In this document: positions 1-62,875 of the stretch, piece after piece
Layout: every line of letters starts with the position of its first letter
Position numbering within the stretch: the stretch's first letter is position 1
Virus record (IMG/VR): IMGVR_UViG_3300026097_000980
Coordinates: 91,509-155,508 of that record
Origin: a virus
Strand: one strand, 5' to 3'
DNA length: 64,000 nucleotides
Program-made: the position numbers and the translations under genes
Notes under the pieces: model-generated
Seen by the model: only the letters and a program-made list of their open reading frames with translations
Told to the model about the DNA's origin: nothing
The model's database searches: none

Positions 1-122
1 AGAGCACCCATTATGCTGGTAGGTGTCACCGTAATGCCAAAGATTTTCATCTTGGTATTTTTAAGATTTTCCATTTCGTTTTCTATATTTTCGGTGATTT
101 CACCCAAGTCTTTGTCACTCAT
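1..122 (-). CDS. Hypothetical protein, N-terminal fragment (MSDKDLGEITENIENEM...), runs off window edge
   Basis: ATG at 122 preceded by GGAGCGAACA; frame open to position 1. Confidence 0.6.
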   Translation of the reverse strand, partial: MSDKDLGEITENIENEMENLKNTKMKIFGITVTPTSIMGA

Positions 123-807
123 TGTTCGCTCCTAGTGTTGTATAAAGTTGTTTGAGTTCTGTGTAATTTTTTACAGTTGTATTTTTCCTAGCATTAGCTA
201 CAGTGCTAGGTTTTTTGTTAGAATGTAGGTCAAAATCAAACACTGTTTTAAGATCCTGTTTCGGATTAAATGATAGCCGATCATAATCAACTATCCTATC
301 AAATTCGCAAAAATTTTCCACGTAGTTTTTTTGTCTTTTAAGGGTATAATACGCTTCTGCGAATAGTTCGGTACTTACAGTGATCTTTTTAACCATACCA
401 AACTCAAATCTTTTTCTGTGCCATTTTCCTGTTTCAGACGCTACAGAATAACTTAACACAATATCAAATAAATTTTGTCTGTCAATGTATACTGTATAGA
501 AATTTGCATCTACATAATTTCTGTATTCTCTATCTAAATCTTTGAACTTTTCAAAGTGATTCTCTTTTTGGCTGATATACCAAAAAAGATTCCCGATATC
601 TTTTATTAGAGCCGAGTTACTGTTTTTTATATTTTTTAATTTGTTAACAAATTTTTTATAGTCTGTATCATATTCTAAGTCAGGGTTTTTGCCAGTGTGA
701 AACGGCTCACAATAATCAACATTATAATGTTGCATAAACTGTGCAATCTCTAACATATATGTGCTTCCTGATCTAGGAAGACTAATTATTGCAATTTTAT
801 CTATCAT
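115..807 (-). CDS. Sulfotransferase-family protein
   Basis: N-terminal ISLPRSGSTY PAPS-binding loop, EPF motif, R-x7-S motif. Confidence 0.65.
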   Translation of the reverse strand: MIDKIAIISLPRSGSTYMLEIAQFMQHYNVDYCEPFHTGKNPDLEYDTDYKKFVNKLKNIKNSNSALIKDIGNLFWYISQKENHFEKFKDLDREYRNYVDANFYTVYIDRQNLFDIVLSYSVASETGKWHRKRFEFGMVKKITVSTELFAEAYYTLKRQKNYVENFCEFDRIVDYDRLSFNPKQDLKTVFDFDLHSNKKPSTVANARKNTTVKNYTELKQLYTTLGANNE

Positions 808-1042
808 TACCTATCCGTGTCTCTGACACTACGTTATCATTCTGTTTGATTTTTATTATTATGGTTTGTTCTAATTCTACTTGTTCTTCGCACACTTCTA
901 TTTTACATTTCAAATGTTCGTCGTATTGTCTATGTGTAAACTCGCCGATTTCTGCTCCAAAATATGCTAAAAATCCAAACGCTATCGCTTCCATGTTCTT
1001 TTTGCCATCTCTCTGTCTAATGCTTTTTGAAAGTTTGAACAT
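797..1042 (-). CDS. Hypothetical protein
   Basis: 81-aa ORF, co-oriented and overlapping its neighbour. Confidence 0.5.
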   Translation of the reverse strand: MFKLSKSIRQRDGKKNMEAIAFGFLAYFGAEIGEFTHRQYDEHLKCKIEVCEEQVELEQTIIIKIKQNDNVVSETRIGNDR

Positions 1043-1123
1043 CTAGGGTTCATTCTTTTAATCTTTAGCTCATTATCCTGCCATTCACTGGTCCAACATA
1101 TCACAGGTGAATAACGAGTTCGT

Positions 1124-3115
1124 TCACTGTTCATATTGACTTCTCACCATTGATTTATGTTTTGCATCGCTGGCTCCATTAAAGAAGCGAGCCGCAGGAT
1201 TGTCATAGTTCTTCTTGTCCGTGTATATATCCTTTGGCGGGTATAAATCGCCGTCTGCCATTTGCGGTTGTTGATATGCTCTAAAGTCGGGATTATATCC
1301 TAACAGTGCTACCAGTGCTGATTCATCTGTGCTACCTGCCATTGCAGCCTGTGCCAGTCTATCTTCTTCTGCATTGGCTTGTGCGATACTGGTTTCATTG
1401 GCTTCTTCCATTGTATCTTCTTGTTCGTCCTTGATGTCTTGTAGTGTGCGTTCTGCAACGCCGTTCACAATGTCGCGTATCAGATTCAAATCCAAACTGG
1501 CCAGTTCAATGTCTGCCATGTCAGCACCTTGACTTAACTGCTCTGATGCGCTCAGTGCAGATTCGCCTGTGATGTCTTCAGTTTGCACTGACCCGCCCTG
1601 TGCAAGATCCATGCTGTTGTCACTGCCCGCATTGCCTGCACTACTACCAGAGCCGTCCATACTGTTCATACTGCCCATGCCACTGCCTTGTGAACTGCTA
1701 CTTCCAAAGCCTCCTCCACTGCTACTCATACTGGAGTTCATAGCACTAAGACTGCTTGTAAGGCTCTGTGTGCTACTCTCTGCGGCTGTGCTTTGTGCGG
1801 CACTGGCTACATCGTCAGCGGCACTGAGAGCGTTCAGTTCGTTTGCGTTTAAGGATCTTCCCGATCCTGATGAGGTTGTTTCCGTGCTCGGAGCAATATC
1901 CCCTGTTGACACTTCAATACCTCCAGCGACTGCTTGTGTTTCTTGCACAGGCGTTCCTGTTGCTGGGTCAGTTGTCTCCATTCCCACCATTCCTTGAGAT
2001 TGTGTATCCATTGAAACATTTCCTGTTCCTCCTGTTATATCTGGAGTGCCTGTAAAATCTTGTGTGCCTGAATATAAATCTTGTTGCGGTGCTATTTGTG
2101 CCATCATAGCATCATTGTAGCCTGGACATTCTGGGGAGAATGTAGGATCTGCTGAACACTGTGCTGACAGCAATACCGTATCCTCTAGGCTTTCCTCTTC
2201 TAGGGGATTGCCTGCGTATCTGTAGTTCAGTTTGATTGAGGGATTCGCAAACTCTGGACCGTAGTATCCTGCCCAGTATCCCAAATCTTTACCAGTCACA
2301 TTCAGTTGAATAGATTCCAGTGTGTTCACATCAAACGGGTCTTTGAATGTTTCCTCACCTGAGATGTTTGTCCACTCACTGTAATATTGACTGTAGTCAT
2401 AGGTCTTTGAAAACACAGCCGTGCCCTGTGTGTCACGAATAACTACCTCCACATAGAAAGTGTCTGGAGTGCTTCTTGCATTATTAGTATAGTTGGCATC
2501 CCAGTTCTTGACACTCCACGAATAGTTGTAGCCAGTGGCTTCTATTCCTGCTTGCTCTAGTGCAATGTTTATTGCGGCGAGGTTCGTGAGTGTGCGTTCT
2601 ACATATCCAAAGTTAATCTGTCCATCCGCCGCACCAACGTATTGATCATTAATAGTAGGACATGATCCGCCTGAAGTTCCACCCCATCCTCTGTTAAGTT
2701 CGTAGCATCCATTCCAATATTGGCTAGTGTCACCTATCAAGTCGCCGGTTTGCCCCACAATGTATTCCTGTGTTGCCCAGTCTATCTCGTCAATCTGTAT
2801 ATATGAGTAGGTAGAATCCATTGACCTATTGACGCAGACATCTGAACGACCCACATACACTTTGTTTACATCGTCTCTCAAACAAAGATATTCGTTGCCT
2901 AACACGCCGTCCGATCCTGTGGTTGAGTTTTCTGAATAGAAATATTCGTCAACACTGCCGCCTTGATCTATCCACCAATCTTTTATTTCATTGTGGTCGG
3001 GTGCTTGGAATGTGTGGGTGTCGTGAGGACCCGCTTTAGAAAGCGGCGCCACCAGTAGCATACATAAGCAGAGCACTGCCCAATATGCCCCAGCCAATGC
3101 CTTTGAGTGTGTCAT
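1124..3115 (-). CDS. Large secreted/surface protein with Ser/Gly/Met-rich low-complexity region
   Basis: Signal-peptide-like N-terminus, 663 aa, acidic. Confidence 0.6.
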   Translation of the reverse strand: MTHSKALAGAYWAVLCLCMLLVAPLSKAGPHDTHTFQAPDHNEIKDWWIDQGGSVDEYFYSENSTTGSDGVLGNEYLCLRDDVNKVYVGRSDVCVNRSMDSTYSYIQIDEIDWATQEYIVGQTGDLIGDTSQYWNGCYELNRGWGGTSGGSCPTINDQYVGAADGQINFGYVERTLTNLAAINIALEQAGIEATGYNYSWSVKNWDANYTNNARSTPDTFYVEVVIRDTQGTAVFSKTYDYSQYYSEWTNISGEETFKDPFDVNTLESIQLNVTGKDLGYWAGYYGPEFANPSIKLNYRYAGNPLEEESLEDTVLLSAQCSADPTFSPECPGYNDAMMAQIAPQQDLYSGTQDFTGTPDITGGTGNVSMDTQSQGMVGMETTDPATGTPVQETQAVAGGIEVSTGDIAPSTETTSSGSGRSLNANELNALSAADDVASAAQSTAAESSTQSLTSSLSAMNSSMSSSGGGFGSSSSQGSGMGSMNSMDGSGSSAGNAGSDNSMDLAQGGSVQTEDITGESALSASEQLSQGADMADIELASLDLNLIRDIVNGVAERTLQDIKDEQEDTMEEANETSIAQANAEEDRLAQAAMAGSTDESALVALLGYNPDFRAYQQPQMADGDLYPPKDIYTDKKNYDNPAARFFNGASDAKHKSMVRSQYEQ

Positions 3116-4001
3116 TGCGTCTGGTTTCCTCTTCCTGTTCAGTAGGCTTTAGTTCTGGATACTTTGCCCACATTTCTTTGGCTTCATCGCCTATCTTGCC
3201 ATTGAACGGACAAGGTGTTCCAGCCATTTCCATTGCTGTAAATACCTTTGGATCCTGGCACATTAGACTCACAGCCGCAACCTTCATGCCCATGTTGTAC
3301 AGGGTCTTTGAATTCTTTAGTCGCTCACAGTTTAGATCACGAACATGTCCACCGCCCGCAATACCCAGTATTTGACTTTGCACTGCCGCTGAATATGAAA
3401 CTGTGCAGGTGTCATTGCCTCCTGCGTTCACCGTGGGGGCAATAGCACTGGGTGGTGGTGACTTGATGGTCTGTGTAATATCACTCTTGTTGTTGTTATT
3501 GTTTGTGTTGTTATTGTTGTTGGTGTTATTACTGGTTGACGTATTTGTGTTCGTGTTGTTGTTAGTGTTTGTGTTCGTGCTGGTGCTGTTCACAGTTTGG
3601 TCAACAGTTTGATCAATGGTGCTGTCCGTGGTCTGATTGATAGTGCTGTCTGTGGTCTGATTGATTGTGCTGTTAGTAGTGTTATTAATCGTGCTGTTGT
3701 TGGTGTTGTTGGTAGTCTGATCAATAGTGCTGTTATTAGTGTTTGTGTTAGTGTTGGTGTTGTTAGTGCCGCCACTCAGAATATTGTTGTTGGTGTTTGT
3801 GTTTGTGTTGGTGGTTCCGCCACTCAGCACATTATTGTTGGTATTTGTACTGTTCACCGTTGAGTTGGTATTTGTGGTGCTTTCCGTCACCACAAGGCTT
3901 GAACTGTCTGCTTCGCCATCTGCATCTTCAAGTGCATGTGCTTGTGGCACCGCACTGATAGACAAGGCTATAACTGCTACGAATAGCACTCTTTTAATCA
4001 T
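3036..4001 (-). CDS. Secreted/membrane-anchored Asn/Thr-repeat protein with Cys-rich C-terminal domain
   Basis: Start moved to ATG 4001 (GGAGCGA SD); signal peptide; (NT)n and STIDQT repeats; C-terminal TM segment. Confidence 0.65.
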   Translation of the reverse strand: MIKRVLFVAVIALSISAVPQAHALEDADGEADSSSLVVTESTTNTNSTVNSTNTNNNVLSGGTTNTNTNTNNNILSGGTNNTNTNTNTNNSTIDQTTNNTNNSTINNTTNSTINQTTDSTINQTTDSTIDQTVDQTVNSTSTNTNTNNNTNTNTSTSNNTNNNNNTNNNNNKSDITQTIKSPPPSAIAPTVNAGGNDTCTVSYSAAVQSQILGIAGGGHVRDLNCERLKNSKTLYNMGMKVAAVSLMCQDPKVFTAMEMAGTPCPFNGKIGDEAKEMWAKYPELKPTEQEEETRRNDTLKGIGWGILGSALLMYATGGAAF

Positions 4002-4097
4002 TTTTCGCTCCCGGGATAAATCGTATTCCCTCAACAGTATTTAATCACAGGTTATTGTGAATTTTAGTACTACTTTAGTACAAGTATTTATCATAAA

Positions 4098-4117
4098 GGT
4101 GTAAAAATATTTACACC
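4098..4117. promoter_or_regulatory. Perfect 8-bp inverted repeat GGTGTAAA-N4-TTTACACC (TGT-N10-ACA), putative operator
   Basis: Directly upstream of TATAAATA promoter and Fis-like gene. Confidence 0.45.
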
Positions 4118-4133
4118 AGACTATAAATACATC

Positions 4134-4355
4134 ATGTCCAGAGAAGAAGATGACGAACTGAGAAGAATCGTTGAGGAACTAGAAAGTTTAAGAAAACAAG
4201 TAGGGCTTCCAGACCGTGTTGAAAAAGTAGAAAAGGATGCTATTCAGAATGCTCTTTATGAGACCGATGGCAATCAAACACTTGCGGCAAAAAAACTTGG
4301 ATTAGGTAGAACCTGTTTGATTGCCAAAATGAAGAAGTATGGGATTATAAAGTAG
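4134..4355 (+). CDS. Stand-alone Fis/NtrC-type HTH_8 DNA-binding protein
   Basis: VEKDAIQNALYETDGNQTLAAKKLGLGRTCLIAKMKKYGI matches HTH_8. Confidence 0.85.
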   Translation: MSREEDDELRRIVEELESLRKQVGLPDRVEKVEKDAIQNALYETDGNQTLAAKKLGLGRTCLIAKMKKYGIIK

Positions 4356-6045: not shown

Positions 6046-6053
6046 AAGTGTAT

Positions 6054-8026: not shown

Positions 8027-8048
8027 TAATGTTTTCCTTATGTTAATA

Positions 8049-10982: not shown

Positions 10983-11542
10983 CTGCTTTCTCCAATAGGA
11001 TCTAGTCCTTTGTTTCGCAATCCTTTTAGCACATTCTGTACACCGACTGCTTGATTCCAAGCATCTTCTAGTGCGTGATGTTTTAGCACAGGCGGACGAT
11101 TGGGATCAATACCTAAGTCATACAATGTACGAGTGTCACGGGCTTGCCAAAACTGCCAAGGACATGATTTTTGTAATTTGCTAAAAATATGTTCTAGAAT
11201 TACCAAGTCAAATCCTGCTCCGTGACTCCACACTCGTTTAGCACCCCAACAAAATTTATACAATTGATCCATAGCATCCTTAATATCGACTCTGCCTTCA
11301 GGATTAAATGCTTCTTCTTGTGCTTCGGCACTTTGCTTTGCCCACCACTCAATGGTAGCATCGCTTGTGGTAAGACCTAGTGCGTCGCAACTGTCGATGT
11401 CCACACGGACATAAAACTTTTCACAGTCAGGTGATTCGACATCGTCACCATAAGGATCAAACTTCACAGCACCAATACTCAAAACTGTAGCCGTAGGCAA
11501 TACGTCCAAAGTTTCTAAATCTATCATTACATCACTTAGCAT
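10979..11542 (-). CDS. DEDDh 3'-5' exonuclease (Rv2179c/DUF5051-like)
   Basis: [27 protein letters not shown]. Confidence 0.85.
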
Positions 11543-11638: not shown

Positions 11639-13240
<1,602 letters not shown>

Positions 13241-13537
13241 TTACTCTCCCTCTCTTACAATTGCATACACTTCTTCTTCTTTTAGAATGTGGTAGTCCTG
13301 TCCGTCAACTTTAATCGTTTGTCCTTGGAAAGTACCAAACACTACAGTATCATCTACTTTAATTTGCATTTCTACATGTTCACCGTTGTCTAGTACTCTA
13401 CCAGGTCCAACTGCAAGAACTTTTCCTTTGGTGGGTTGCGCATTCACCGCATCTGGAATAACCAGCGATGAAGCATTTAATGTATCGTCATCTAGTAATT
13501 GGACAACGAGTCTGTCTCTGATAGGTTCAAATTTCAT
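13241..13537 (-). CDS. groES: Co-chaperonin GroES
   Basis: PIRDRLVV, GKVLAVGPG; adjacent to groEL. Confidence 0.95.
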   Translation of the reverse strand: MKFEPIRDRLVVQLLDDDTLNASSLVIPDAVNAQPTKGKVLAVGPGRVLDNGEHVEMQIKVDDTVVFGTFQGQTIKVDGQDYHILKEEEVYAIVREGE

Positions 13538-13598: not shown

Positions 13599-13841
13599 TT
13601 AATAGTTTTTCTGCGGTAATTTTTGTTGATTAAGTTTTTTACGCCATCGAGCTTTTGCCGCAGAACGTGCCCGCTTCCTTTCAGAACTAGGTTTTTCGTA
13701 AGACTCTCTTTTTCGTACTTCTTCCAATATACGACTATCGTTGACTTTTCGTTTAAGTCTACGAAGAGCTTGAGTAAGATTTTCATTGTCTTTTAATTTG
13801 ACAGATCTGCCTTTAAAATCGTTATGTTTATAATTAGCCAT
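13599..13841 (-). CDS. rpsU: 30S ribosomal protein bS21
   Basis: ENLTQALRRLKRKV...RKRESYEKPSSERKR; TATAAATA ends 5 nt before ATG. Confidence 0.92.
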   Translation of the reverse strand: MANYKHNDFKGRSVKLKDNENLTQALRRLKRKVNDSRILEEVRKRESYEKPSSERKRARSAAKARWRKKLNQQKLPQKNY

Positions 13842-17394: not shown

Positions 17395-17946
17395 TTATTC
17401 GGCTCTGTAAAAGATGTGAGCACCGATGCGTCCAATTGTGCGGAATCGCTTGTTCCAACTTGGGTCAACATAGGTTGCATGATAGTGAGTAGCACCTTCT
17501 GTGATGCCTCTGTATAAGTCGCGATTGAGGATTTGAAATGCCACAGTCTGTGCCCGTCTCCATGCCTCGGCATCAGTAGGATTATCACTCTTGCCATCAC
17601 AGAACCAGCTGAACTGACACTTGTGTCTAACAGGTACAAGTTTGTTGTGATTATCTTTCCACCATTTGGAATATTTCGCATCTTGAACTACTCCACAAGG
17701 TGTGTTCGGCCAGCGGCTGTCTCGCACACGATTAAGAACAACATCGCTGACAGCGAACATTCCTGCAAGATTGTCTGAACGACTTTCGTGGTACACATTT
17801 AGTGCCATACAGTATTCCTGCGGATGGCTCTCCATTGTGTATAATTCTGCTTCTGGTGCTCTGATAGTATCACCAAAGGAATTGTCTGACGCAACCGATA
17901 CTGTTGCAAACAACATCGAAGACACGATTGCTGTTGTAAATTTCAT
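17395..17946 (-). CDS. Cell-wall hydrolase, SleB/Hydrolase_2 family
   Basis: CMALNVYHESR, VLNRV, CQFSWFCDG, GATHYHA, IGAHIFY; signal peptide. Confidence 0.9.
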   Translation of the reverse strand: MKFTTAIVSSMLFATVSVASDNSFGDTIRAPEAELYTMESHPQEYCMALNVYHESRSDNLAGMFAVSDVVLNRVRDSRWPNTPCGVVQDAKYSKWWKDNHNKLVPVRHKCQFSWFCDGKSDNPTDAEAWRRAQTVAFQILNRDLYRGITEGATHYHATYVDPSWNKRFRTIGRIGAHIFYRAE

Positions 17947-17999
17947 TATTCGCTCCATCAATTATTTAAAGGTTAATCTCTTATAATAAACTGTTAAGT

Positions 18000-20562: not shown

Positions 20563-20878
20563 CTGACTTTTGGATTACAAGGCAGTCAACCCCGAAGCCT
20601 CATGCGGCCAGTGCGAATGTTTCATCATTTGCAGTTATTTTATTTTGCTTCTACGACCGGGTATACTCCCAATCCTAACGGCTTTCACATTGCCGGTAAC
20701 TCCACTCGCCTAATCATCTCGCCGTCGAATCCTTGATCTGCCCCATCATAGATACACCACGTTCTTCTCCTACTATTTCACCTTTCGGTCTACTCTCTCG
20801 GAGTTGTAGATGTATCTATGGTGGAACAGCCGGGAGTCGAACCCGGGTCCGTCAACCTTTCGGTCTGCTTCATCGTTA
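20563..20878 (-). ncRNA. ssrA: Circularly permuted (two-piece) tmRNA, tag ANDETFALAA
   Basis: Acceptor piece with T-arm CCGGGTTCGACTCCCGG and CTGTTCCACCA ending at 20819; 74-nt intervening stem; coding piece GGGGCAG...GGATTCGAC from 20744; G3-U70 pair; tag ORF 20632-20600. Confidence 0.92.
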
Positions 20879-20887
20879 CAGTATTAT

Positions 20888-40449: not shown

Positions 40450-40932
40450 TTACTTGCCTTCCATTAGTTTAACTGCGGCATCGTAGTCCGCTTGTGATAC
40501 TAAACCTTCTTCTAGTAAACGCTGTCTGTTAACCGCATGAGCCGCTTGTGTTTCTTCTTTGCTTCCGCCGAAGTAAGGAACACAATGTCCTTCGGCGATC
40601 ATAATCTCTGTGACTCGCTTCATTTCGCCGTTATAGTCAACTTTAAAGTCTCCTAGAATACGACCAAACTTGCCTTTCATATCCTCGCCGTGCTTGTCTT
40701 CTGTGGTGATTAACTTGCCACCATTCTTCATTAGCTCTTTTAATCTTGCTTTTGCCGCTTCGCCGAAAAGATCTTCTACTCTATCGCTGGTGCGTGACTC
40801 TGGTGTGTCGATGCCCATAATGCGAACACGCTCGTCCTTTAGGCAAACGCCAAATCCTAGATCAATGTCAACATCAACTGTATCGCCGTCAACAACTTTT
40901 ATTACTGTTACATCATATTCATTTTGTGTCAT
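40450..40932 (-). CDS. Thermonuclease (SNase) family nuclease
   Basis: VVDGDTVD, VRIMGIDTPE, KFGRILG. Confidence 0.9.
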   Translation of the reverse strand: MTQNEYDVTVIKVVDGDTVDVDIDLGFGVCLKDERVRIMGIDTPESRTSDRVEDLFGEAAKARLKELMKNGGKLITTEDKHGEDMKGKFGRILGDFKVDYNGEMKRVTEIMIAEGHCVPYFGGSKEETQAAHAVNRQRLLEEGLVSQADYDAAVKLMEGK

Positions 40933-41564
40933 TAGAAATATACCTTCTTTGAGTTAAATGCTCGCTCCCAACCCCAGAAACGGGCCTTCCAGTCTGATTG
41001 ATCATCGGAGCAGAGATTGATCCATTCACTCTTTCGGTCTATGATTTCTTGAATCCTTCCCTCCCAGTCTGCAGAATCGATTAACTCTTCTGCACGGTCT
41101 TTCAAATCAACTGCGTCATTGTATGTCACGGCATCTTGCTCTATGTGAAAAACTTCAAAACAGTGTTCGTGGGTGACATAGTCTATTGAAAAGTCAATGC
41201 CCCACTTTGGCTGTATACGAAGCAGTTTGTTCAGCACAGGTCGAACCCGTGCGGCTCGTTCTATTGCTTCTCTTGCTTCGCCTGCATATGCCCAACGATG
41301 CAGTATTTGTGTATGATCTAATATTAATCCGCTTTCGCTAGAATCACTGTCTCTATACCATTGTTGACAACAGGCTGTGTGATATTGCACATCACCTATT
41401 AGGGCACCATTGTATTCATAATGAAGTCTTTCGATAGGAGTTGCTACCTCGTAGCCATCCTTGTCAAAGTCTCTGAACTCTGCATTGTAGAGAACATCTG
41501 TGTGGATCGGCTGTGTGAGATAAGGTTCCGGAAACAGAACCACATGATTTTTATGTAGACGCAA
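40932..41564 (-). CDS. Hypothetical protein
   Basis: 210 aa; TTG start with GGAGCGA SD. Confidence 0.65.
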   Translation of the reverse strand: MRLHKNHVVLFPEPYLTQPIHTDVLYNAEFRDFDKDGYEVATPIERLHYEYNGALIGDVQYHTACCQQWYRDSDSSESGLILDHTQILHRWAYAGEAREAIERAARVRPVLNKLLRIQPKWGIDFSIDYVTHEHCFEVFHIEQDAVTYNDAVDLKDRAEELIDSADWEGRIQEIIDRKSEWINLCSDDQSDWKARFWGWERAFNSKKVYF

Positions 41565-41648
41565 TCGTCGCTCCTTTAATCTACTGTAATCATATTTATT
41601 GCAAAAACCCTATAAATATTAGTAGATTAAACTTCCGGGAGCGAAACA

Positions 41649-42452
41649 ATGGAACTTATTTCACCAGCCGTTAAAAGCGGTATTTCAACTCTTACACTGT
41701 CAGGTCGTGCTTTGTTATTTGCAGAGCTGGCCTCAATAGCCTATATGGACGAAAAAGAAGCAACCAGTCAAGCAAAGAAACTAGGATTCACAACTGTTGA
41801 ATTCTACAATAAAGCTGGTGCTCAAGCCTATCGGTTTATGAGCAAGCGAGATCTTGTGATCATCTGCCGTGGCACAGAGCCAACAGAATGGAATGACATT
41901 AAAGCAGACCTAGATGCTGTTCCTGTTATGGCTGAAACTGTTAGTCGTGTTCATAGAGGATTCAAAGCAGAAGTTGACGAACTATGGCCAATGGTTATAG
42001 AAGATGTTCAGCGTGAAGCAGAAGGCAGAGACCTTTGGTTCTGCGGACACAGTTTAGGTGCGGCAATGACTACAATCATGGCAAGCAGATGCTTCCACGA
42101 TCCGGACCTTGCTGATCCAGTAGAAGTTCACACATATGGTTCACCAAGAGTAGGATGGCCAGGATATGCTAAAAGTCTCGGTATGACACATCATCGTTGG
42201 GTTAACAACAACGACATAGTCACCCGAGTTCCTATGTGGATTATGGGTTATCGTCATCACGGTATAGAACACTATATCGATTCAGAAGGCGACGTGGATC
42301 AGGAAAAAGGTCTTGCTCGTTTCTGGGATGGCTTTCAAGGAACTGTAAGAGGACTACTAAAAGGAAGTGTGGATCAGATTTCAGATCATAATATGAGTGA
42401 ATATATCAAACATCTTGCTAGAAATGCACGGGGTAGAATAGAACCCAAATAA
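41649..42452 (+). CDS. Class 3 lipase
   Basis: RGTE, VHRGF, CGHSLGAA, YGSPRVG, NNNDIVTRVP, DH. Confidence 0.92.
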   Translation: MELISPAVKSGISTLTLSGRALLFAELASIAYMDEKEATSQAKKLGFTTVEFYNKAGAQAYRFMSKRDLVIICRGTEPTEWNDIKADLDAVPVMAETVSRVHRGFKAEVDELWPMVIEDVQREAEGRDLWFCGHSLGAAMTTIMASRCFHDPDLADPVEVHTYGSPRVGWPGYAKSLGMTHHRWVNNNDIVTRVPMWIMGYRHHGIEHYIDSEGDVDQEKGLARFWDGFQGTVRGLLKGSVDQISDHNMSEYIKHLARNARGRIEPK

Positions 42453-47433: not shown

Positions 47434-47484
47434 CAACTCTTAAGATTTTTTGTATACTTGTATAAATTGTGTTAGGAGCGAAGC

Positions 47485-47991
47485 ATGAGCAAACACTTTT
47501 TCGAGAGAGTACAACAAGGGTATGCAGGTGTAAAGAAAACAGTTTCGACTACCTGTTCACTTGCATACTGTAACGAAACATCTTCTAAATATAAAGGATA
47601 CGGTTCGAGATTATGTGAACACCATCAGAGTTTGATGCGTGAATACGGCGGCCCGGGCCGCACTGATCGTCCGTATACATTCCATAAAAACCGCCACTGT
47701 GAATGTTGCGGACTTGACCCGTGGGAACATCCTATGGTTAAAAAAATAGACGACGAACTGGTTCGAGATAGAGTTGCATGGGGCATGCTTATTGTAGATC
47801 ATCTACACACCCAGCGTGACGGCGGCTGTGACAGCAAGCATAATGTACAAACACTATGTAGAATGTGTGATCAAATAAAAACCACACTGGCCTGTGACAG
47901 CATGCCAAAAGCTCGTTACAAAGACGAAGCAGAATATTATGCTGTTATTGAACGTCTCCGTCCTTATTATGAAAAACTGTTTGGAAAATAA
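47485..47991 (+). CDS. Zn-binding HNH-like protein
   Basis: CECCG, IVDH, NVQTLCRMCD; TTGACA-17-TATACT at 47430-47458. Confidence 0.65.
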   Translation: MSKHFFERVQQGYAGVKKTVSTTCSLAYCNETSSKYKGYGSRLCEHHQSLMREYGGPGRTDRPYTFHKNRHCECCGLDPWEHPMVKKIDDELVRDRVAWGMLIVDHLHTQRDGGCDSKHNVQTLCRMCDQIKTTLACDSMPKARYKDEAEYYAVIERLRPYYEKLFGK

Positions 47992-54446: not shown

Positions 54447-54567
54447 CGTTGAACAACAGTTGAACAAAAAAGTTTTACTGTTCACCATTTGTCCTAAAAA
54501 TAACACTTTACACATACGTGCGCAGACGTTACTATATACACATACTTTAAAAAACGGAGCGTACACT

Positions 54568-54819
54568 ATGCAAAATTACACAACTGCTGTTGCAAGCGTT
54601 ATTGCTTACTATGCAAAAATGATTGCAGAAGCAAGCTACGACTCAGTAGCGGAAGCAAGCGACTACAGCATTACAGACAACTGCGCAAAAATACAGTACT
54701 TGCTTGCGGAAAGTGCGCAACACACTACTGTGCAAAGTTTAGCAGTTGCCGCAATAAACAGCAGTGCGGATACAGTAGTACGCGAATGCATGTACACACA
54801 ATTAATGCAACACACGTAG
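54568..54819 (+). CDS. Early hypothetical protein (DTVVRE motif)
   Basis: Own promoter and GGAGCG SD; start MQNYTT. Confidence 0.7.
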   Translation: MQNYTTAVASVIAYYAKMIAEASYDSVAEASDYSITDNCAKIQYLLAESAQHTTVQSLAVAAINSSADTVVRECMYTQLMQHT

Positions 54820-54899
54820 TTAATAGTAAAACACAATTGTACACTGTAGCATGCATGTGTTACTATATACACATACTAAACAAAACGGAGCGTGTATAT

Positions 54900-55109: not shown

Positions 55110-55193
55110 TTGCAAAAAACACTTGCACTATGTGTGCAAGTGTGCTACTATATACACATACACTAAACAATTAACTGCATTAGGAGCGAACTT

Positions 55194-55640
55194 ATGCAAT
55201 ACTGTAATATTAATACACACTGCGCTGTGGTTGATAGCGCAAACTATGCACTGCTTACAGCAGAACAACAGCAAACACTTACACAAGCGGAAAAGTGTTT
55301 TGTTGTGCAATTTTTAGCAGATACACTTGCAAGCTTAACACAACTTAATAATGCAAGTGTAGTTGAGGGTGAGGAGTACGTTATACGTTTAACGGACGCA
55401 CTTGAAGTTATGCAAAACTTGCAAGCACTGTATGAAACGTATGAGGATGATAACGCACAGTTAACGTTTACAATAGCAGATGCGGGTGCGGCAATTTGTA
55501 GTTACGATACAGAGTACAGAGAGTGCATTGCGGAGCAATTTGAGTGTGCGTGTGATGAGCAAGCAAAACTTGCAAAGCAATTGCACACTACTGGTGCGGA
55601 CTATAGCACACTTGCACTGCGTGTAATTTACGCTTACTAA
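55194..55640 (+). CDS. Early acidic hypothetical protein (DTEYRE motif)
   Basis: Own promoter and GGAGCGAA SD. Confidence 0.75.
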   Translation: MQYCNINTHCAVVDSANYALLTAEQQQTLTQAEKCFVVQFLADTLASLTQLNNASVVEGEEYVIRLTDALEVMQNLQALYETYEDDNAQLTFTIADAGAAICSYDTEYRECIAEQFECACDEQAKLAKQLHTTGADYSTLALRVIYAY

Positions 55641-55709
55641 AAAAACACTTGACAAAGTGTGCGTATGCTGTTATAGTATACGCATACTTTAAATACAGGA
55701 GCGTACACT

Positions 55710-55877: not shown

Positions 55878-55945
55878 AAAACACTTGACAACTGTGTATG
55901 TGTGTGCTATAGTATACACATACACTAAACAAAACGGAGCGAACA

Positions 55946-56128: not shown

Positions 56129-56137
56129 GGAGCGAAC

Positions 56138-56932
56138 ATGCCAGCCAAAAGAGAAACAGATGCGGAAATTGTCGAACGCTTACGCGAGCGTTTCGATATC
56201 CTTAACTTAATGACAGCCGCTGTTAAAGCAGGCGATATCCGAGCAATGATTGTAACAGGTCCTCCGGGTGTGGGCAAGAGTTTCGGTGTTCAAGCCACAC
56301 TAGAGAAGGACGACCTATTCGCCACACTGGGCAATCGTCCACCCAAGTATGAGTTTGTTAAAGGTGCTATGAGTGCAGTGGGCTTGTACGCCAAACTGTA
56401 TCAGTATAGTGCTCGAGACGAAGTCCTAGTGTTTGATGACTGTGATAGCATTCTACTAGACGATCTCTCGCTTAACATTTTAAAGGCCGCATTGGATTCG
56501 GGCAAGAAGCGCATGATCCATTGGAACACGGATTCACGTAGCCTACGACAGGAAGGCATCCCTCACAGCTTTGAGTACAAGGGCGGTGCTATCTTCATCA
56601 CCAACCTTAAGTTTGAGAACGTGCGTAGCAAGAAACTAAAGGACCACCTTGAGGCATTAGAGTCACGCTGTCACCACATTGACTTGGGCATGGACACTGA
56701 TCGTGAAAAGGTTCTGCGCATCAAACAGATTGTGCAGGATGGCATGCTAGACGGATATGATCTTGCCAGCGACATCAAAGACAGCATTGTAGACTACGTA
56801 GTTGCCAACAAAGAACGACTGCGCGAACTCAGCCTGCGTTCAGTGTTGAAGATTGCAGACTTAGCCAAAGCACACCCGGATCGTTGGGAGCGCATGGCTG
56901 AGGTCACTGTGATGCGGAGGGCTCGTTCATGA
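56138..56932 (+). CDS. AAA+ ATPase
   Basis: Walker A GPPGVGKS, Walker B LVFDDCD, FITN, ALESR. Confidence 0.88.
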   Translation: MPAKRETDAEIVERLRERFDILNLMTAAVKAGDIRAMIVTGPPGVGKSFGVQATLEKDDLFATLGNRPPKYEFVKGAMSAVGLYAKLYQYSARDEVLVFDDCDSILLDDLSLNILKAALDSGKKRMIHWNTDSRSLRQEGIPHSFEYKGGAIFITNLKFENVRSKKLKDHLEALESRCHHIDLGMDTDREKVLRIKQIVQDGMLDGYDLASDIKDSIVDYVVANKERLRELSLRSVLKIADLAKAHPDRWERMAEVTVMRRARS

Positions 56933-57099
56933 TCGATGCAGGATATTGGAGTACTTGCCAGTACATTCTCTACAGGGGTCGTACACCAGACGGTACCAAG
57001 TACTGTGGAGTTGACAGCAACGGGCGTAGTTCATACTGTGAAGAACATCATGCAGTATGTTATACAGCACACAAGCGCAAGCGCAAGAAGAAACTTTAA
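56929..57099 (+). CDS. GcrA C-terminal-domain-like mini-protein (not in ORF track)
   Basis: 56 aa STCQYI...KYCG...SYCEEHHAVCY; ATGA overlap with ATPase and GGAGG SD. Confidence 0.6.
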   Translation: MIDAGYWSTCQYILYRGRTPDGTKYCGVDSNGRSSYCEEHHAVCYTAHKRKRKKKL

Positions 57100-57156
57100 T
57101 TCAATTTGGATCCCTAAGGGGTTGTTAAAAGAGTATATAACATGTACTATAATAAT

Positions 57157-57270
57157 ATAATAAAAACAATAACAATTTTATTATAGACATTACCGATCAC
57201 ACTGCGCAAGCTCCGATTCGCTCCCGGGGTGCAGTGGGGGGACTACGATCTTGTAGTCCCCTTTCTTTTT
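57157..57270 (+). ncRNA. Candidate trans-acting sRNA with anti-GGAGCGAA loop
   Basis: Promoter TTGTTA-17-TACTAT; A-rich 5' hairpin; hairpin with loop ATTCGCTCC (57216-57224); terminator GGGGACTAC/GTAGTCCCC plus T tract. Confidence 0.7.
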
Positions 57271-57367
57271 ATTCAAAATACCACAGGCCCCGCTGTAAAG
57301 GGGTTGACAAGTCCTATCAAAGACCATATACTGTATAGACAATGAAGCAATAAGTGGAGCGAACACT

Positions 57368-57685
57368 ATGAGCCAAAGAGATACTAACTCATTCGATAGA
57401 ACAGCAACCGCTGTCACAGCAATCATGCAACTTGAATCCGTAGAAGAGATCCGTGCGGTATGTGATGCGATCAAGCGTCAGCAAACATACCTCAGCACAC
57501 AGAACATCCGCAAGGTTGTGAAGGGTGCATGCGTGAGCTTTACTGATCGTTCGGGTCGTAAGATAGTTGGCACAGTCACAAAAGTCAACCGCAAGACTGT
57601 GGAGGTGTTAGGTGGCATGAGCAACGGCCTGTTCAGGACAACCTATAAGGTTCCAGGATCAATGTTAACAGTGGAGGGTGCGTAA
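57368..57685 (+). CDS. Early protein with SH3/KOW-like C-terminus
   Basis: VSFT...GTVTKVNRKTVEV...YKVP. Confidence 0.7.
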   Translation: MSQRDTNSFDRTATAVTAIMQLESVEEIRAVCDAIKRQQTYLSTQNIRKVVKGACVSFTDRSGRKIVGTVTKVNRKTVEVLGGMSNGLFRTTYKVPGSMLTVEGA

Positions 57686-58246: not shown

Positions 58247-58293
58247 CCATACACTATACATATAGTTAGGAAATAGGCATTAGGAGCGAAACT

Positions 58294-58638
58294 ATGCAAG
58301 CACAAATCGAAAAGCTTATCCAAGACATCAAAGCGGACTACGTGCGTTTCATGACTGGCGTTGGCGACAAAGAAGACATCCGCCAAGACATGATCGACAA
58401 CTTCGTAGACAGCATCACATACAACGAAGGCAAGAAGTATATCAAGATCCTCAAGAAGCTGGGTAGCCAGACTATGGTGTGGGGCTTCATCGTAAATGTA
58501 GACGACGACAAGAAGTTCCGCAAGGGTGACATCTTAATGGCGGCAGGCTACAATGCTCCTGCTCGCAACAAGCCACGTGGCAATGTTATTGATGGCAACT
58601 ACAGTATTCGTTGGACTGGACCGGAGTACTTAAAGTGA
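58294..58638 (+). CDS. Hypothetical phage early protein
   Basis: KKYIKI...VWGF...GDILMAAGYNAPARNKPRGNV. Confidence 0.75.
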   Translation: MQAQIEKLIQDIKADYVRFMTGVGDKEDIRQDMIDNFVDSITYNEGKKYIKILKKLGSQTMVWGFIVNVDDDKKFRKGDILMAAGYNAPARNKPRGNVIDGNYSIRWTGPEYLK

Positions 58639-58850: not shown

Positions 58851-58912
58851 GGGTTGACATCTTTCTTTACAGAGGCTATACTGTAAAGACAATGAACAGA
58901 CAGGAGCGAAAC

Positions 58913-59272
58913 ATGTCAAATTCAGTAGAAGCAATGTTGGTAGAGGCGGCACACGCCAAAGCAATCCAAGCGGCTCGCAATGCGGCCCAAGCGTTCGCAG
59001 ATCGCCACTTCGGCGGCGGCGATGGCGGTGCGTGTGGCTTTGCTTGGGTTGACGCATACAAGGTACGTTCAAATTCAAAGATGGGCAAGGCACTGCAGGA
59101 AGTAGGCTTCCGCAAGAGCTACACTGGTGCACTCCAACTGTGGAACGGACGTGATGGTTGGTATTTTGGCCAGAGCGTGGATGCCGCAGAAGAAGGTGCT
59201 CGTGCCTACGCTGAAGTATTCAAAGAAGAGCTTGAGCTTGACAACATCTACGCAGGATCGCGCTTAGACTAA
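58913..59272 (+). CDS. Hypothetical phage early protein (CGFAWV motif)
   Basis: Promoter and GGAGCGAA SD; start MSNSVE. Confidence 0.75.
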   Translation: MSNSVEAMLVEAAHAKAIQAARNAAQAFADRHFGGGDGGACGFAWVDAYKVRSNSKMGKALQEVGFRKSYTGALQLWNGRDGWYFGQSVDAAEEGARAYAEVFKEELELDNIYAGSRLD

Positions 59273-59392
59273 GGAACAAACGACCTGGGCACGTCGCGAG
59301 GAAAACTGCCCGTTTTATTTTTCCTAAATGGTTGACACTGATCCAAAATGGCCATACACTATACATATAGTAAGAAATTAGGAGCGAATCCA

Positions 59393-59788
59393 ATGACCAC
59401 ACTTTTACAACACATCGAGTCACTTAACGCACACGCAGACCTCATGATGGAGCAGGAGCCAGGTCTGTGGATGAGCAAGTACACGGACGATATGTCGCAT
59501 TGGGCAGACATGGGTGTGTACACCGTGGAGGACTTCAAGCGCAATCAGTTGATCAACGGCATCTCGGATGCCAGCAAGGACCTCTATGGTTGCCGCTTGC
59601 GTTTGGACTGGGATGAGATGACTATTGAGCAGATGGAGTCTACATACGAGAACATCTGTGCTCAACTGCGTATCCAGTTCGAAGAGGAGCAGGCTTGGGA
59701 GGCTTGGGAAGCAGAGTGTAAGAAAGGCTTGCCAGATGACTGCGAGCCTCTTCCATACGAAGAGTATGCAGACTTGGAGCGTGTGTAA
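59393..59788 (+). CDS. Early acidic protein
   Basis: Promoter and SD; ISDASKDLYGCRLR. Confidence 0.75.
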   Translation: MTTLLQHIESLNAHADLMMEQEPGLWMSKYTDDMSHWADMGVYTVEDFKRNQLINGISDASKDLYGCRLRLDWDEMTIEQMESTYENICAQLRIQFEEEQAWEAWEAECKKGLPDDCEPLPYEEYADLERV

Positions 59789-59858
59789 TGGAGTTGGCGA
59801 TCGCAAGTTTGGTTCTTATCCCTTTAATTGCAACGGCTATTCTAGCAAGGTTCTTATA

Positions 59859-60026
59859 ATGCTAGAGCTGATTGGATTCGTCGCCCTTGCCTACTTGGCA
59901 TTCAAGTTTCTTCCTGCGGTGTTAGAAGCAGGGTTCAAATTTGCCATCATCTGCATTGGACTGTTGGCATTCATTTTGCTGATCGGATTCTTTACCACAT
60001 CAATTCAAATTGCATTTAGTGGTTGA
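59859..60026 (+). CDS. Small two-TM membrane protein
   Basis: MLELIGFVALAYL...; hydrophobic. Confidence 0.5.
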   Translation: MLELIGFVALAYLAFKFLPAVLEAGFKFAIICIGLLAFILLIGFFTTSIQIAFSG

Positions 60027-60080
60027 CACTGATCCAAAATGATCATACACTATACATATAGTGAAGTTAAGGAGCGAACA

Positions 60081-60236
60081 ATGGACTACAGAGATTACAC
60101 ACTTGAGCTGGTAGACGAAGGTCTAGTCGATGCACGTGACTTATTGGTCATGGCTGTAAAGTATATGAGTCAAGACGACGTCCGCGACATGATTACTGTC
60201 AACGAACTAGAAGCACTAACAGCGGAGGACGCATAA
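60081..60236 (+). CDS. Early acidic protein (MDYRDY...)
   Basis: Promoter and SD. Confidence 0.7.
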   Translation: MDYRDYTLELVDEGLVDARDLLVMAVKYMSQDDVRDMITVNELEALTAEDA

Positions 60237-60397
60237 TGTTCCAACAATACTTTGTTTATTATGATGGCCGGTTTGCTGGCACTGTGATGGCACTGTCAGA
60301 GTCTAGTGCAAAGGACAAAGGCTGTCAGATGGTTGGTGTGAGTGCGAGTGCTTACACTGGTAAGGCAAGACGTTTGGTAGAGGTAGTAAGACGATGA
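60236..60397 (+). CDS. Hypothetical protein (MFQQYFV...)
   Basis: TAATG coupling; GGAGG SD. Confidence 0.55.
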   Translation: MFQQYFVYYDGRFAGTVMALSESSAKDKGCQMVGVSASAYTGKARRLVEVVRR

Positions 60398-60546
60398 ACG
60401 GGAAGCGCATTGAACTCACTGTTAGTCTTTGGATTGCAGAAGACGCAGACGTTGCAGAAGTGTTCGAGAACATGGACTACGACTTCTCATATGAAGACAA
60501 GATTCTCGACACTGAGATTACCGACTTGAATACGGAGGTGGCATAA
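60394..60546 (+). CDS. Very acidic 50-aa protein (MNGKRIE...)
   Basis: ATGA overlap; GAGG SD. Confidence 0.55.
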   Translation: MNGKRIELTVSLWIAEDADVAEVFENMDYDFSYEDKILDTEITDLNTEVA

Positions 60547-60755
60547 TGAGCGCAGGTTCAAGCAACTATGAGTCAGTGGATGTGATCACAACGATCCGTC
60601 AGACTGTTGAAGTCCCCAAAGGCAGCGACAAGCAAGAGATCCTAAACTTCCTAGCACAGGAACAGAGTTTCAACGATGCATTCAAAGGCACTCGCAACGA
60701 AGCCTACGATATGTATATCCAAGACATTGAAGTAATAGATGAGGAGGTAGAGTAA
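60546..60755 (+). CDS. Acidic hypothetical protein
   Basis: TAATG coupling; GGAGG SD. Confidence 0.6.
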   Translation: MSAGSSNYESVDVITTIRQTVEVPKGSDKQEILNFLAQEQSFNDAFKGTRNEAYDMYIQDIEVIDEEVE

Positions 60756-61276
60756 TGCCCAATTGGTGTTATAATCATGTGGACATCACAGCCACCACAG
60801 ACGAGCAGAAAGACTTGTTGGACCGTGTGTCACGAGCAGAGACAGCGGACGGGTTCTTTGCAATGTTCCGTCCTATCGGAGAGTGGGACTACAATGTCGC
60901 ACTAGAGAAGTGGGGCACCAAGTGGGATGTTGAGCCTCTGGATGTGGAGTTCGATGGTGAGATGTTAACCACAAGTTTCGACTCAGCCTGGGCTCCACCC
61001 GTTGCACTCTACGAGTATTTGAAAGAACAAGGCTTTGGAGTCACTGCTTCTTACTACGAACCAGGTATGAACTTTGGCGGCTTCTGGAACGATGGTGAGT
61101 CGATCGAGCTTGACGATGTTAGCACTATGGCTCGCACACCGGATGACACTTGGGACGAAGACTTCCGTGAACTGGACGACATCTATGGCATTGCAGATGA
61201 TGTTGCCCAGTGGGACGAAGACGAAGAAGAGGAAGAAGATCCTTATGTGAGTCCAGGGAGTGACTGTCAGGTATGA
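60755..61276 (+). CDS. DUF1281/YubB-like ferredoxin-fold protein
   Basis: MPNWC, WGTKWD, FDSAWAPP, YYEPG. Confidence 0.8.
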   Translation: MPNWCYNHVDITATTDEQKDLLDRVSRAETADGFFAMFRPIGEWDYNVALEKWGTKWDVEPLDVEFDGEMLTTSFDSAWAPPVALYEYLKEQGFGVTASYYEPGMNFGGFWNDGESIELDDVSTMARTPDDTWDEDFRELDDIYGIADDVAQWDEDEEEEEDPYVSPGSDCQV

Positions 61277-61446
61277 GGACATATCATTTCCATTTTGAAA
61301 TCACGTGTGCTTCAGAAGGGCATGCGGACCTAGAGCGTGTTGAACAGATGATCGATCTGTCAATGCAGGAGTTGGTGTTTGATGATGAGTTCATCAAGGC
61401 ACTTGCAGAGAAAGAATCAGTAACTATACAGGTAACACAATCATGA
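61273..61446 (+). CDS. Hypothetical protein (MRTYHF...)
   Basis: ATGA overlaps at both ends. Confidence 0.55.
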   Translation: MRTYHFHFEITCASEGHADLERVEQMIDLSMQELVFDDEFIKALAEKESVTIQVTQS

Positions 61447-61679
61447 AACAGTATCAAGCGGCAGGCGTATCGTTCTTTCGAGATCGATACAAGGTACGGG
61501 TAGCACAAGACATCAGCAGAGTAAACGTGTTGAGCCGTAACGGACACACCAACATCGATATGGAGACACTGCCACGCTCAATGACCAAAGCAGAGATCGC
61601 AGAATGGTTCGACGGCGAGCTGTGGCCCACAGAAGCAAGAGAGGCAATTACCAAATTCCAGATCAAGCACTTGGCATAA
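61443..61679 (+). CDS. Hypothetical protein
   Basis: AGVS...KVR...GHTNI...LPRSMTK. Confidence 0.65.
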   Translation: MKQYQAAGVSFFRDRYKVRVAQDISRVNVLSRNGHTNIDMETLPRSMTKAEIAEWFDGELWPTEAREAITKFQIKHLA

Positions 61680-61687
61680 ATATTTTT

Positions 61688-62077
61688 ATGGAAGAGCTTG
61701 TGGGATACATCATTGTTCTCGTCATTGGAATTGCGATTGGTTGGTTCTATGCTAACCGTATTGCCATCCAGGCATTCGCCAACGTGATCCAGCGACTGGG
61801 AGTTCCTGAAGAAAAGCTCATAGAGCTTATGGAAGATATCAAAGAGAACGGCTATCAAGAAGAAGAAGAATCCTCGCCCATTGAGGATACTGTAGAGGTT
61901 CGCGTGGAACAGGTTGACGGCGTCCTCTATGCCTACAATGATGTAACCCAGGAGTTTCTCGCCCAGCACTCCGATCCAGAACAGTTGATAGAAAGAATCT
62001 CCCAACAAATCCCCACTGGATCTCTAGTAAGCATCCCCGTAAACAAAGGCGGACTTTTCTTTAAAGATATAGCCTAA
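61688..62077 (+). CDS. Membrane-anchored acidic protein
   Basis: TAAATA 5 nt before MEELVG; N-terminal TM. Confidence 0.65.
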   Translation: MEELVGYIIVLVIGIAIGWFYANRIAIQAFANVIQRLGVPEEKLIELMEDIKENGYQEEEESSPIEDTVEVRVEQVDGVLYAYNDVTQEFLAQHSDPEQLIERISQQIPTGSLVSIPVNKGGLFFKDIA

Positions 62078-62140
62078 ACCGGTTGACAACCTCTTCAAAA
62101 GATCCTATACTATACATATAGTGAAGTTAAGGAGCGAACG

Positions 62141-62242
62141 ATGGCTTACACTGCAAATCACCTAGATGTCATGCTTGTACTTGCCGCCACCGGCATTGCG
62201 ATTAGTTATTTGATGATCACCGGCGAATGGAGGAAGTTCTAA
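62141..62242 (+). CDS. 33-aa single-TM peptide (MAYTANH...)
   Basis: Promoter and GGAGCGAA SD. Confidence 0.6.
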   Translation: MAYTANHLDVMLVLAATGIAISYLMITGEWRKF

Positions 62243-62538
62243 TGCCTTACTACACTCACACCAAAGATCCAATCGGCGTATTCACGGAAAAGGACACCGG
62301 CAACTATTTTGAATACAGCCTCAACCCAGAACGAGTATTGGCTCCACCAGCACACGGCGGACGCAACATGGACTTCCCACACCGAGTTTGGGTAGGCGGC
62401 GAAGGCGTGTGCGGTATGAGTGGATGGCGACACGCTAAGGTTGGCAAGACTGTGGTCCACATCATCACAGACGAAGACGATCGTGGTCGTGCTGTGGTTG
62501 AGAAGTGGTATATTAAGAATCATCGGGAATATGCATAA
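62242..62538 (+). CDS. Hypothetical protein
   Basis: TAATG coupling; GGAGG SD. Confidence 0.65.
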   Translation: MPYYTHTKDPIGVFTEKDTGNYFEYSLNPERVLAPPAHGGRNMDFPHRVWVGGEGVCGMSGWRHAKVGKTVVHIITDEDDRGRAVVEKWYIKNHREYA

Positions 62539-62605
62539 AGGGGTTGACTGTGATCCAAATTGAGTCTATACTGTATAGACAATGAAGCATTAAGGAGCGA
62601 ACACA

Positions 62606-62875
62606 ATGCGAGTAGTAGAACAATACGGCATGTTTACTGACACTGGCGACTACATGGTAGACCGCATCGTACGTGCCGGCATCACAATGTGCCACGCAGA
62701 CACCCCAGCAACCAATGCTGAAATTTGGGGATTCGTCAAGCGTGAGTGCGCCAAGCTTGCAACTTCAGAAGACTTTGCAGAAGCAACTGACACTGTGGTC
62801 AGAGAGGAATGCTTCACAGCACTGTTCAATTGCATTCCAGGATTTAACCTTTCAGAAGACCAATACTGGGCATAA
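62606..62875 (+). CDS. Early protein (DTVVRE motif)
   Basis: Promoter and SD. Confidence 0.7.
   Translation: MRVVEQYGMFTDTGDYMVDRIVRAGITMCHADTPATNAEIWGFVKRECAKLATSEDFAEATDTVVREECFTALFNCIPGFNLSEDQYWA

Follow-up and report, generated by a model that had tools for sequence, protein, structure and literature searches.

We analysed a 64,000-nucleotide stretch of viral DNA (positions 91,509 to 155,508 of the IMG/VR record IMGVR_UViG_3300026097_000980, hereafter the window), in which a class of genes carries the octamer GGAGCGAA, or tag, just ahead of the start codon, and a candidate hairpin RNA presents the exact complement of this octamer in its loop. We consider it probable that the GGAG of the tag is the ribosome site and that the CGAA that follows is a private address for an anti-Shine-Dalgarno (anti-SD) RNA, which would repress the tagged genes. 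That this RNA is synthesised, that it pairs with the tagged leaders and that pairing is repressive is what we infer from the sequences. The final 64 kb of a viral contig of 155,508 bp make up the window. The completeness of this contig estimated by CheckV is about 42%; the source is therefore a jumbo phage.

The original prediction listed 19 starts preceded by GGAGCG, and all 19 sites are found just 5' of the start codon, with a gap of 3-7 nucleotides (nt) between the end of the hexamer and the start. Two of them need a correction. The start at 41564 does carry the hexamer, but it is a TTG and its tag is the variant GGAGCGAC; that at 62141 is tagged, but opens an open reading frame (ORF) of only 33 codons (62141-62242, plus strand), whose hydrophobic product is possibly a small membrane protein. 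The window has 31 copies of GGAGCG, compared with 12.35±3.48 in dinucleotide shuffles, none of which reached 31 in 100 trials. Over the whole contig, 128 GGAG sites are located before a start that opens an ORF of at least 50 codons. Among these, GGAGCG makes the largest class, with 23 sites, 16 of them GGAGCGAA, and nearly half of the GGAGCG copies of the contig precede a start. In an independent gene call (214 genes, 155-kb contig), GGAGCGAA is the commonest octamer within 20 nt before starts, with 15 genes. It has 20 copies in the contig, three of them outside a start context, and about three would be expected by chance on both strands. Four additional tagged genes, at contig positions 11397, 23743, 40759 and 90985, are located upstream of the window.

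The tag was also proposed to sit on the first gene after a promoter, with ordinary GGAG(G) on coupled downstream genes. This holds overall, but not for a tagged ATPase gene that starts at 56138, only 9 nt behind the preceding gene; coupled genes do have GGAGG or GAGGAGG, for example at 57685, 60546 and 60755. Between 54 and 62.6 kb, promoters of the form TTGACA-17-TATACT or TATAGT, with 11 of 12 matches, are found at six sites. Conservation was examined in 80 related uncultured viral contigs, which were recovered with the tagged ATPase gene (56138-56932) and have ATPase identities of 66-86%. Their 1,239 GGAG-type sites include 519 GGAGCG and 316 GGAGCGAA, and 75 of the 80 loci have at least one GGAGCGAA. 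After de-duplication there are 273 unique GGAGCGAA sites. A sigma-70-like promoter that matches at 10 or more of 12 positions, with the -10 box ending 17-23 nt upstream of the tag, precedes 90% of them, versus 21% of the other GGAG sites. Because of this association, GGAGCGAA appears clade-wide as a mark of promoter-proximal, mostly early genes with short leaders. The flanks of the 273 sites are variable, A-rich and G-poor, with A at -1 in 83% and T at +1 in only 5%. With so many unique sites, such variable flanks and ATPases that have diverged to 66% identity, the motif is not a mere product of recent duplication.

The core of the tag has the features of a canonical Shine-Dalgarno (SD) sequence: GGAG is usually preceded by A (83%), ends 5-9 nt from the start and has a predicted duplex of -5.6 to -10 kcal/mol with the canonical 16S tail. 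As had been argued, CGAA is left unpaired by this tail, where it faces C, A, C and U and makes one pair at most, and the bases past the core do not fit the extended SD GGAGGUGAUC. The remaining SD sequences of the contig are ordinary (AGGA, AAGGAG, GGAGGT and GAGGTG, also AGGAGGT and GGAGGTG), which argues for a canonical anti-SD in the host. The 16S genes of three Burkholderiales-type genomes, used as proxies for the host, end in GGATCACCTCCTTTC. With canonical proxy tails and canonical SDs elsewhere, the comparison gives no sign of a tail complementary to CGAA. The CCUCC core of the tail is itself reported as conserved across bacteria (PMC10783764).

The original prediction held that CGAA is kept for another reader, RNA or protein, and a conserved RNA candidate with an exact eight-base complement now lends support to this view. 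One reverse-strand copy of the octamer is located in the plus-strand intergenic gap 57100-57367, behind a Cys/His ORF of 56 amino acids (aa). The candidate anti-SD RNA (57160-57272, plus strand) has an A-rich 5' region, followed by a hairpin and then by an intrinsic terminator (57236-57263) and its U run. The hairpin loop (57216-57224) is the 9-nt AUUCGCUCC, the complement of GGAGCGAAU, and eight of its bases are the exact complement of the tag; the folding z-score is -4.1. The loop starts with UUCG, which presumably fits the YUNR pattern of a U-turn. The A-rich part (57160-57200) contains AACAAUAACAA, which we take to be an ARN-repeat-like stretch that could bind Hfq. A promoter-like site, TTAAAA-17-TATAAT (57125-57153, plus strand), is ahead of the RNA; a site of this kind is present only in this phage and its nearest relative. 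No family of Rfam 15 matched the RNA at its gathering score; the best sub-threshold match was AbsR28, with 19.5 bits against a gathering score of 50.

In the relatives, the early-gene strand has 129 copies of TTCGCTCC, the reverse complement of the tag. Nearly all of them take the form CCGATTCGCTCCCGG and immediately follow the ATPase operon, as one copy (41 units) or two (39 units). The segment GATTCGCTCCC is invariant across 94 distinct hairpin sequences. The apical stem of 3 bp has CG, UA and GC alternatives, with 29 double-sided changes versus 3.3 in shuffles, and is paired in 95% of cases. The outer stems vary freely yet pair, with at least four enclosing pairs in 111 of 117 unique instances; a stem of at least four pairs together with an open loop is found in 79 of these 117, versus 37 of 300 random positions. 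When whole two-hairpin units were aligned with MAFFT, RNAalifold recovered the apical stem only, because the variable stems do not align. Covarying stems around a fixed loop point to a hairpin that is under selection. All 70 unique hairpin units are located 0-95 nt after an ORF stop, 61 of them have a T run at the end, and two have a promoter-like site of their own. The hairpin thus has the location, the terminator and the invariant seed of a regulatory RNA embedded in a 3' untranslated region (UTR) or terminator. In each of four relatives of 100-223 kb, the hairpin 11-mer has two copies, all on the early-gene strand and none on the opposite one; in three of the four, it is located behind an array of about 10 kb with 4-11 tagged genes.

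Tag and loop were also linked by an unbiased search for octamers at the SD position that have their reverse complement on the same strand, in which GGAGCGAA/TTCGCTCC was by far the top pair (32 loci). Position -1 of the leaders is A and position +1 is C or A, whereas a reverse-complemented hairpin would call for G and T. Since the complementarity stops exactly at the octamer, the loop is not an inverted copy of the cassette. The support for pairing is comparative and thermodynamic. Predicted duplexes between leaders and loop are bimodal, with about 19 genes at -12 kcal/mol or stronger and all others at -10 or weaker, and the tagged class has a predicted mean of -12.8 kcal/mol with the loop versus -7.4 with the 16S tail. 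The GGAGCGT variants at 54556, 54887 and 55698 are as originally described and, as was expected of them, are predicted to pair more weakly with the loop (about -10.4 to -10.5 versus -13 kcal/mol). A loop variant in a shifted register, GCTCCTT, was rejected, as it is coding sequence for the C-terminus of a conserved protein.

On a tree of the ATPases, a branch with 99% support parts 66 rows that have the tag, the loop or both from 47 rows that have neither. Four rows have a single feature, among them the contigs L009, L022 and L027, which end short of the hairpin position. A further 77 relatives, sampled around the tagless lineage, have no GGAGCGA site and a single chance TTCGCTCC. Within 10 kb of the ATPase gene, the sister clade has no other CU-rich terminator loop and no self-complementary SD octamer. 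The joint presence of tag and loop is best described as co-retention after one event, not as repeated co-gain.

These observations suggest the following mechanism. GGAG, usually after A or UAA, would be an ordinary SD core that pairs with the canonical 16S tail, and CGAA would be a clade-specific address that is not read by the ribosome and that extends the complementarity with the loop AUUCGCUCC to eight bases. The early ATPase operon would release the hairpin RNA from its 3' end, in the 3' UTR or terminator, and in this phage the RNA would perhaps also be made from its own promoter-like site. As early transcripts build up, a stable fragment made of hairpin and terminator would pair with the tagged leaders. 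The resulting helix of 8 bp would cover the SD, out-compete the weaker SD/anti-SD contact and block binding of the 30S subunit, and the duplex may also be a target for RNase, as in icaR (PMC3868564). In this way, the RNA would act as a brake on the tagged class, which consists mostly of immediate-early genes.

Parts of this scheme have been described in other systems. In T4, early transcripts are labelled by an extended SD consensus, and a dedicated reader directed by the phage inactivates them once the early period is over (PMC3014915). This RegB/S1 consensus is, in function, the best precedent for an early SD that is extended for a reader other than the ribosome, and the tag does not fit it: the T4 reader is a protein nuclease acting with S1, whereas the candidate reader here is an RNA, position 5 of the tag is C, and regB has no match in the 155 kb. 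The proposed brake would be the RNA counterpart of RegB/S1 action at the early GGAG sites of T4. In icaR of Staphylococcus aureus, pairing of a pyrimidine-rich 3' UTR motif with the SD region prevents initiation and makes a substrate for RNase III (PMC3868564). The hairpin described here is also in the 3' UTR of an operon with a tagged gene of its own; icaR, however, acts on its own mRNA alone, whereas here about 20 leaders are on separate transcripts and the complement is in a structured loop. The cuckoo/CcsR (alpha-r14) small RNAs of Alphaproteobacteria have 2-4 adjacent hairpins with variable stems and the same invariant, anti-SD-like loop (PMC4615179). They are chromosomal, and their loop CCUCCUCCC mimics the general anti-SD, whereas AUUCGCUCC matches a private tag in a virulent phage and is present in 1-2 copies. 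In the c4 antisense RNA of phages P1 and P7, loops of a phage RNA pair around the ribosome-binding site (RBS) of a phage mRNA and block its translation (reviewed in PMC12197685). There, a single antirepressor operon is controlled, in the immunity of temperate phages, and not a class of about 20 tagged genes. The hairpin RNA resembles cuckoo/CcsR and c4 in architecture and is a member of none.

Several observations weigh against a repressive RNA brake. A helix of 8 bp formed from a loop of 9 nt that is closed by only three pairs is sterically demanding, and one hairpin, with 1-2 loops per genome fragment, faces about 20 targets, which may pose a problem of stoichiometry. A lipase and a cell-wall hydrolase are among the tagged genes, seemingly behind late-type TATAAATA boxes, unlike what a pure early shut-off would give. 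No lineage of the sample has tag and loop both changed; every locus has GGAGCGAA and TTCGCTCC, and this invariance leaves no compensatory evidence for pairing. The homologue search behind this sample filled up with relatives of 71% identity or higher, short of intermediate lineages. The co-occurrence of tag and loop on the tree counts as one event. A search of sequencing runs placed the stretch only in DNA assemblies from marine, saltern and soil samples, with no RNA run listed. Finally, recombination is known to maintain the similarity of cassettes of the promoter-early stem-loop (PeSL) type (PMC2839356, PMC4122927), and this could by itself account for a uniform leader motif.

The pairing could also be real and its outcome different. 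The hairpin might activate the leaders or shield them, be it from a host nuclease or from decay that depends on the 5' end, or act in cis only, by silencing downstream SDs on read-through or by circularising the mRNA of its own operon as in icaR. The position of the hairpin, in the 3' UTR of the operon that contains the tagged ATPase gene, fits these readings, as do the 41 of 70 hairpin units that have another promoter and a tagged gene within 190 nt downstream, and icaR demonstrates that pairing of a 3' UTR with an SD is possible within a single mRNA (PMC3868564). Activation, however, is at odds with pairing over GGAG, which leaves no free SD and is normally repressive. Because most tagged genes are on other transcripts, the hairpin cannot account for some 20 tags by acting only in cis. 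Taken jointly, we judge protection, activation and the cis-only forms unlikely.

It is slightly less likely still that inheritance of cassettes accounts for everything, with GGAGCGAA as the 3' end of PeSL-like cassettes homogenised by recombination, CGAA unread and the loop unrelated or a relic. In T4-type phages, PeSL cassettes have been presented as substrates for recombination (Arbiol et al. 2010, PMC2839356; Comeau et al. 2014, PMC4122927). They are repeated modules in which a stem-loop or terminator is joined to an early promoter close to the sigma-70 consensus, an SD and a start, and they are found ahead of small early ORFans in plastic parts of T4-like genomes. The cassettes described here fit this make-up in their sigma-70-like promoter, SD and start, which are repeated before small ORFs, and some cassettes of the window are near-identical over at least 40 nt. 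As to the stem-loop, a terminator hairpin precedes the promoter at 57304, and 41 of 70 hairpin units have a promoter behind them. The description of PeSL has neither a private SD extension nor an RNA complementary to the SD of the cassette, whereas in this phage the SD block persists even in cassettes that otherwise differ. The flanks vary over 273 unique sites while the octamer stays, and the tag also precedes genes with unrelated upstream sequence and late-type boxes (4001, 17946, 41649 and contig position 40759). Homogenisation would explain similar leaders, but not a conserved and structured complement with covarying stems and a fixed loop, and exact complementarity over eight bases between two independently invariant motifs is very unlikely to arise by chance.

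A protein reader has a similarly small chance. It would be a nuclease like RegB together with S1, a repressor like RegA or ribosomes that carry the phage bS21, and the hairpin would have another role. T4 offers a precedent, as its strong RegB/S1 sites are the extended early SD GG*AGRAYARAA (PMC3014915). The phage encodes bS21, a protein near the anti-SD on the 30S subunit; this candidate was rejected, since bS21 is also encoded in two sister-clade contigs without the tag and therefore does not track it. Searches of the 155-kb contig, about 42% of the genome, gave no match to RegB (PF10715) or RegA (PF01818), and a reader gene could lie outside that part. The tag, however, has C where the RegB consensus needs a purine, and a protein reader leaves the complementary conserved loop unexplained.

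We give a slim chance to the idea that the pair GAUUCGCUCC/GGAGCGAAUC is no brake, and that the hairpin RNA would instead be a surrogate, orthogonal anti-SD that docks tagged mRNAs, perhaps with phage-modified ribosomes, as a private route of translation or as protection. If true, GAUUCGCUCC/GGAGCGAAUC would be a natural counterpart of engineered orthogonal ribosome-mRNA systems. A DNA-level site is most improbable. In that case, GGAGCGAA/TTCGCTCC would be an operator in double-stranded DNA, to which a transcription factor binds in either orientation, at about +12 to +24 relative to early promoters. The fairly fixed distance of 17-23 nt from the -10 box would suit an operator; the forward form, however, is found only before starts at SD spacing, and the reverse form only in hairpin loops with covarying RNA-type stems, by U runs, neither of which would be expected of a DNA operator. 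That the host has an unusual 16S tail complementary to GGAGCGAA is scarcely credible, given the three proxy betaproteobacterial 16S genes that end in GGATCACCTCCTTTC and the AGGAGGT, GAGGTG and GGAGGTG sites of the same phage that fit CACCUCCU.

If the proposed pairing between tag and loop is true, a large and widespread clade of uncultured aquatic jumbo T4-like phages would control a whole temporal class of genes by one short RNA and an RBS address of eight bases. This would be an RNA answer to the problem that T4 solves with the RegB nuclease, and the hairpin RNA would be among the very few regulatory RNAs known from virulent phages. More generally, it would mean that bases flanking the SD core can come under selection by a second reader, which is of relevance for gene-start prediction, for statistics of 'non-canonical SD' in metagenomic phages and for the design of orthogonal translation control. 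In practice, the tag can serve as a marker of promoter-proximal, mostly immediate-early genes in unannotated genomes.

The tagged genes of the window are as follows. On the minus strand, GGAGCGAA at 125-132 precedes the ATG at 122 of a gene that runs off the window start, with a predicted loop duplex of -13.1 kcal/mol. At 4004-4011 (minus), in the context CCCGGGAGCGAA, it precedes the ATG at 4001 of a 321-aa protein with no Pfam family. At 17949-17956 (minus), GGAGCGAA(U) precedes the ATG at 17946 of the cell-wall hydrolase (PF07486), which has the late-type box TTTAAATA upstream and the best predicted loop duplex, -14.1 kcal/mol. The variant GGAGCGAC (41567-41574, minus) is before the TTG at 41564, which starts an ORF of 210 aa. 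On the plus strand, GGAGCGAA at 41638-41645 is before the ATG at 41649 of the class-3 lipase (PF01764), with a late-type TATAAATA box upstream, and at 47475-47482 before the ATG at 47485 of an HNH endonuclease, with TTGACA-17-TATACT upstream. Two GGAGCGT variants (54556-54562 and 54887-54893, plus), with weaker predicted loop duplexes of -10.5 kcal/mol, precede the starts at 54568 and 54900. GGAGCGAA at 55183, GGAGCGT at 55698 and GGAGCGAA at 55936 (plus) precede the starts at 55194, 55710 and 55946, each with an early promoter ahead. The ATPase gene, which encodes an nrdC.10-like AAA ATPase, has its tag at 56129-56136 (plus). An early cassette (57304-57363, plus) consists of TTGACA-17-TATACT (57304-57332), a short leader and GGAGCGAA (57356-57363), followed by the ATG at 57368. 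The remaining plus-strand copies of GGAGCGAA, at 58283, 58903, 59381, 60071, 62131 and 62594, precede the starts at 58294, 58913, 59393, 60081, 62141 and 62606. The -10 regions of early promoters are located inside short palindromes (CTATACTGTATAG; CACTATACATATAGTG), at 57323-57335, 58248-58263, 59346-59361, 60037-60052, 62099-62114 and 62563-62575, which might be operator sites.

Behind the ATPase gene, the Cys/His-rich ORF of 56 aa (56929-57099, plus strand), which has a lysine-rich tail and an ATG that overlaps the ATPase stop (ATGA), is kept in the relatives. It may resemble the C-terminal part of GcrA-like proteins. It is absent from an ORF list with a minimum of 60 aa, and an ORF of 74 aa at 56936-57160 was rejected as spurious and in the wrong frame. 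The ATPase itself has about 356 aa in most relatives (e.g. P0018-P0025), with an N-terminus about 90 residues longer than that of the 264-aa protein described here.

The phage is an uncultured giant T4-like phage. T4-like traits are the dense array of small genes behind near-consensus sigma-70 promoters, the TATAAATA-type boxes ahead of many other genes, the genes for nrdA, GroEL, three transfer RNAs and a permuted transfer-messenger RNA (tmRNA), and a homologue of T4 nrdC.10. A DNA search of 50,697 deposited phages found no near relative, and therefore no cultured host; the best protein identities among these phages are 46-59%, and the best ATPase match, 46%, is that of Pseudomonas phage PA5oct. 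GroEL (11639-13537, minus strand) has 532 aa, and its nearest matches, with 64-67% identity, are chaperonins of Burkholderiales and Nitrosomonadales; a gene of 98 aa is upstream, in the position of GroES. The permuted two-piece tmRNA (20600-20879, minus) has the predicted tag ANDETFALAA, which we take to be of betaproteobacterial type. The likeness of GroEL and of the tmRNA tag to those of betaproteobacteria hints at the host at the level of class only. The bS21 homologue (13599-13841, minus; 63 bits) is behind sigma-70-like and TATAAATA-like boxes. In many untagged genes, a T4-type late box (TATAAATA or TAAATA) ends 4-6 nt before the ATG, with no SD. Examples are those at 4134 (plus), 16139, 33160, 33853 and 34282 (all minus), 45176 (minus) and 52251 (plus). 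Since the box ends so close to the ATG and no SD is present, the late mRNAs may be leaderless or nearly so.

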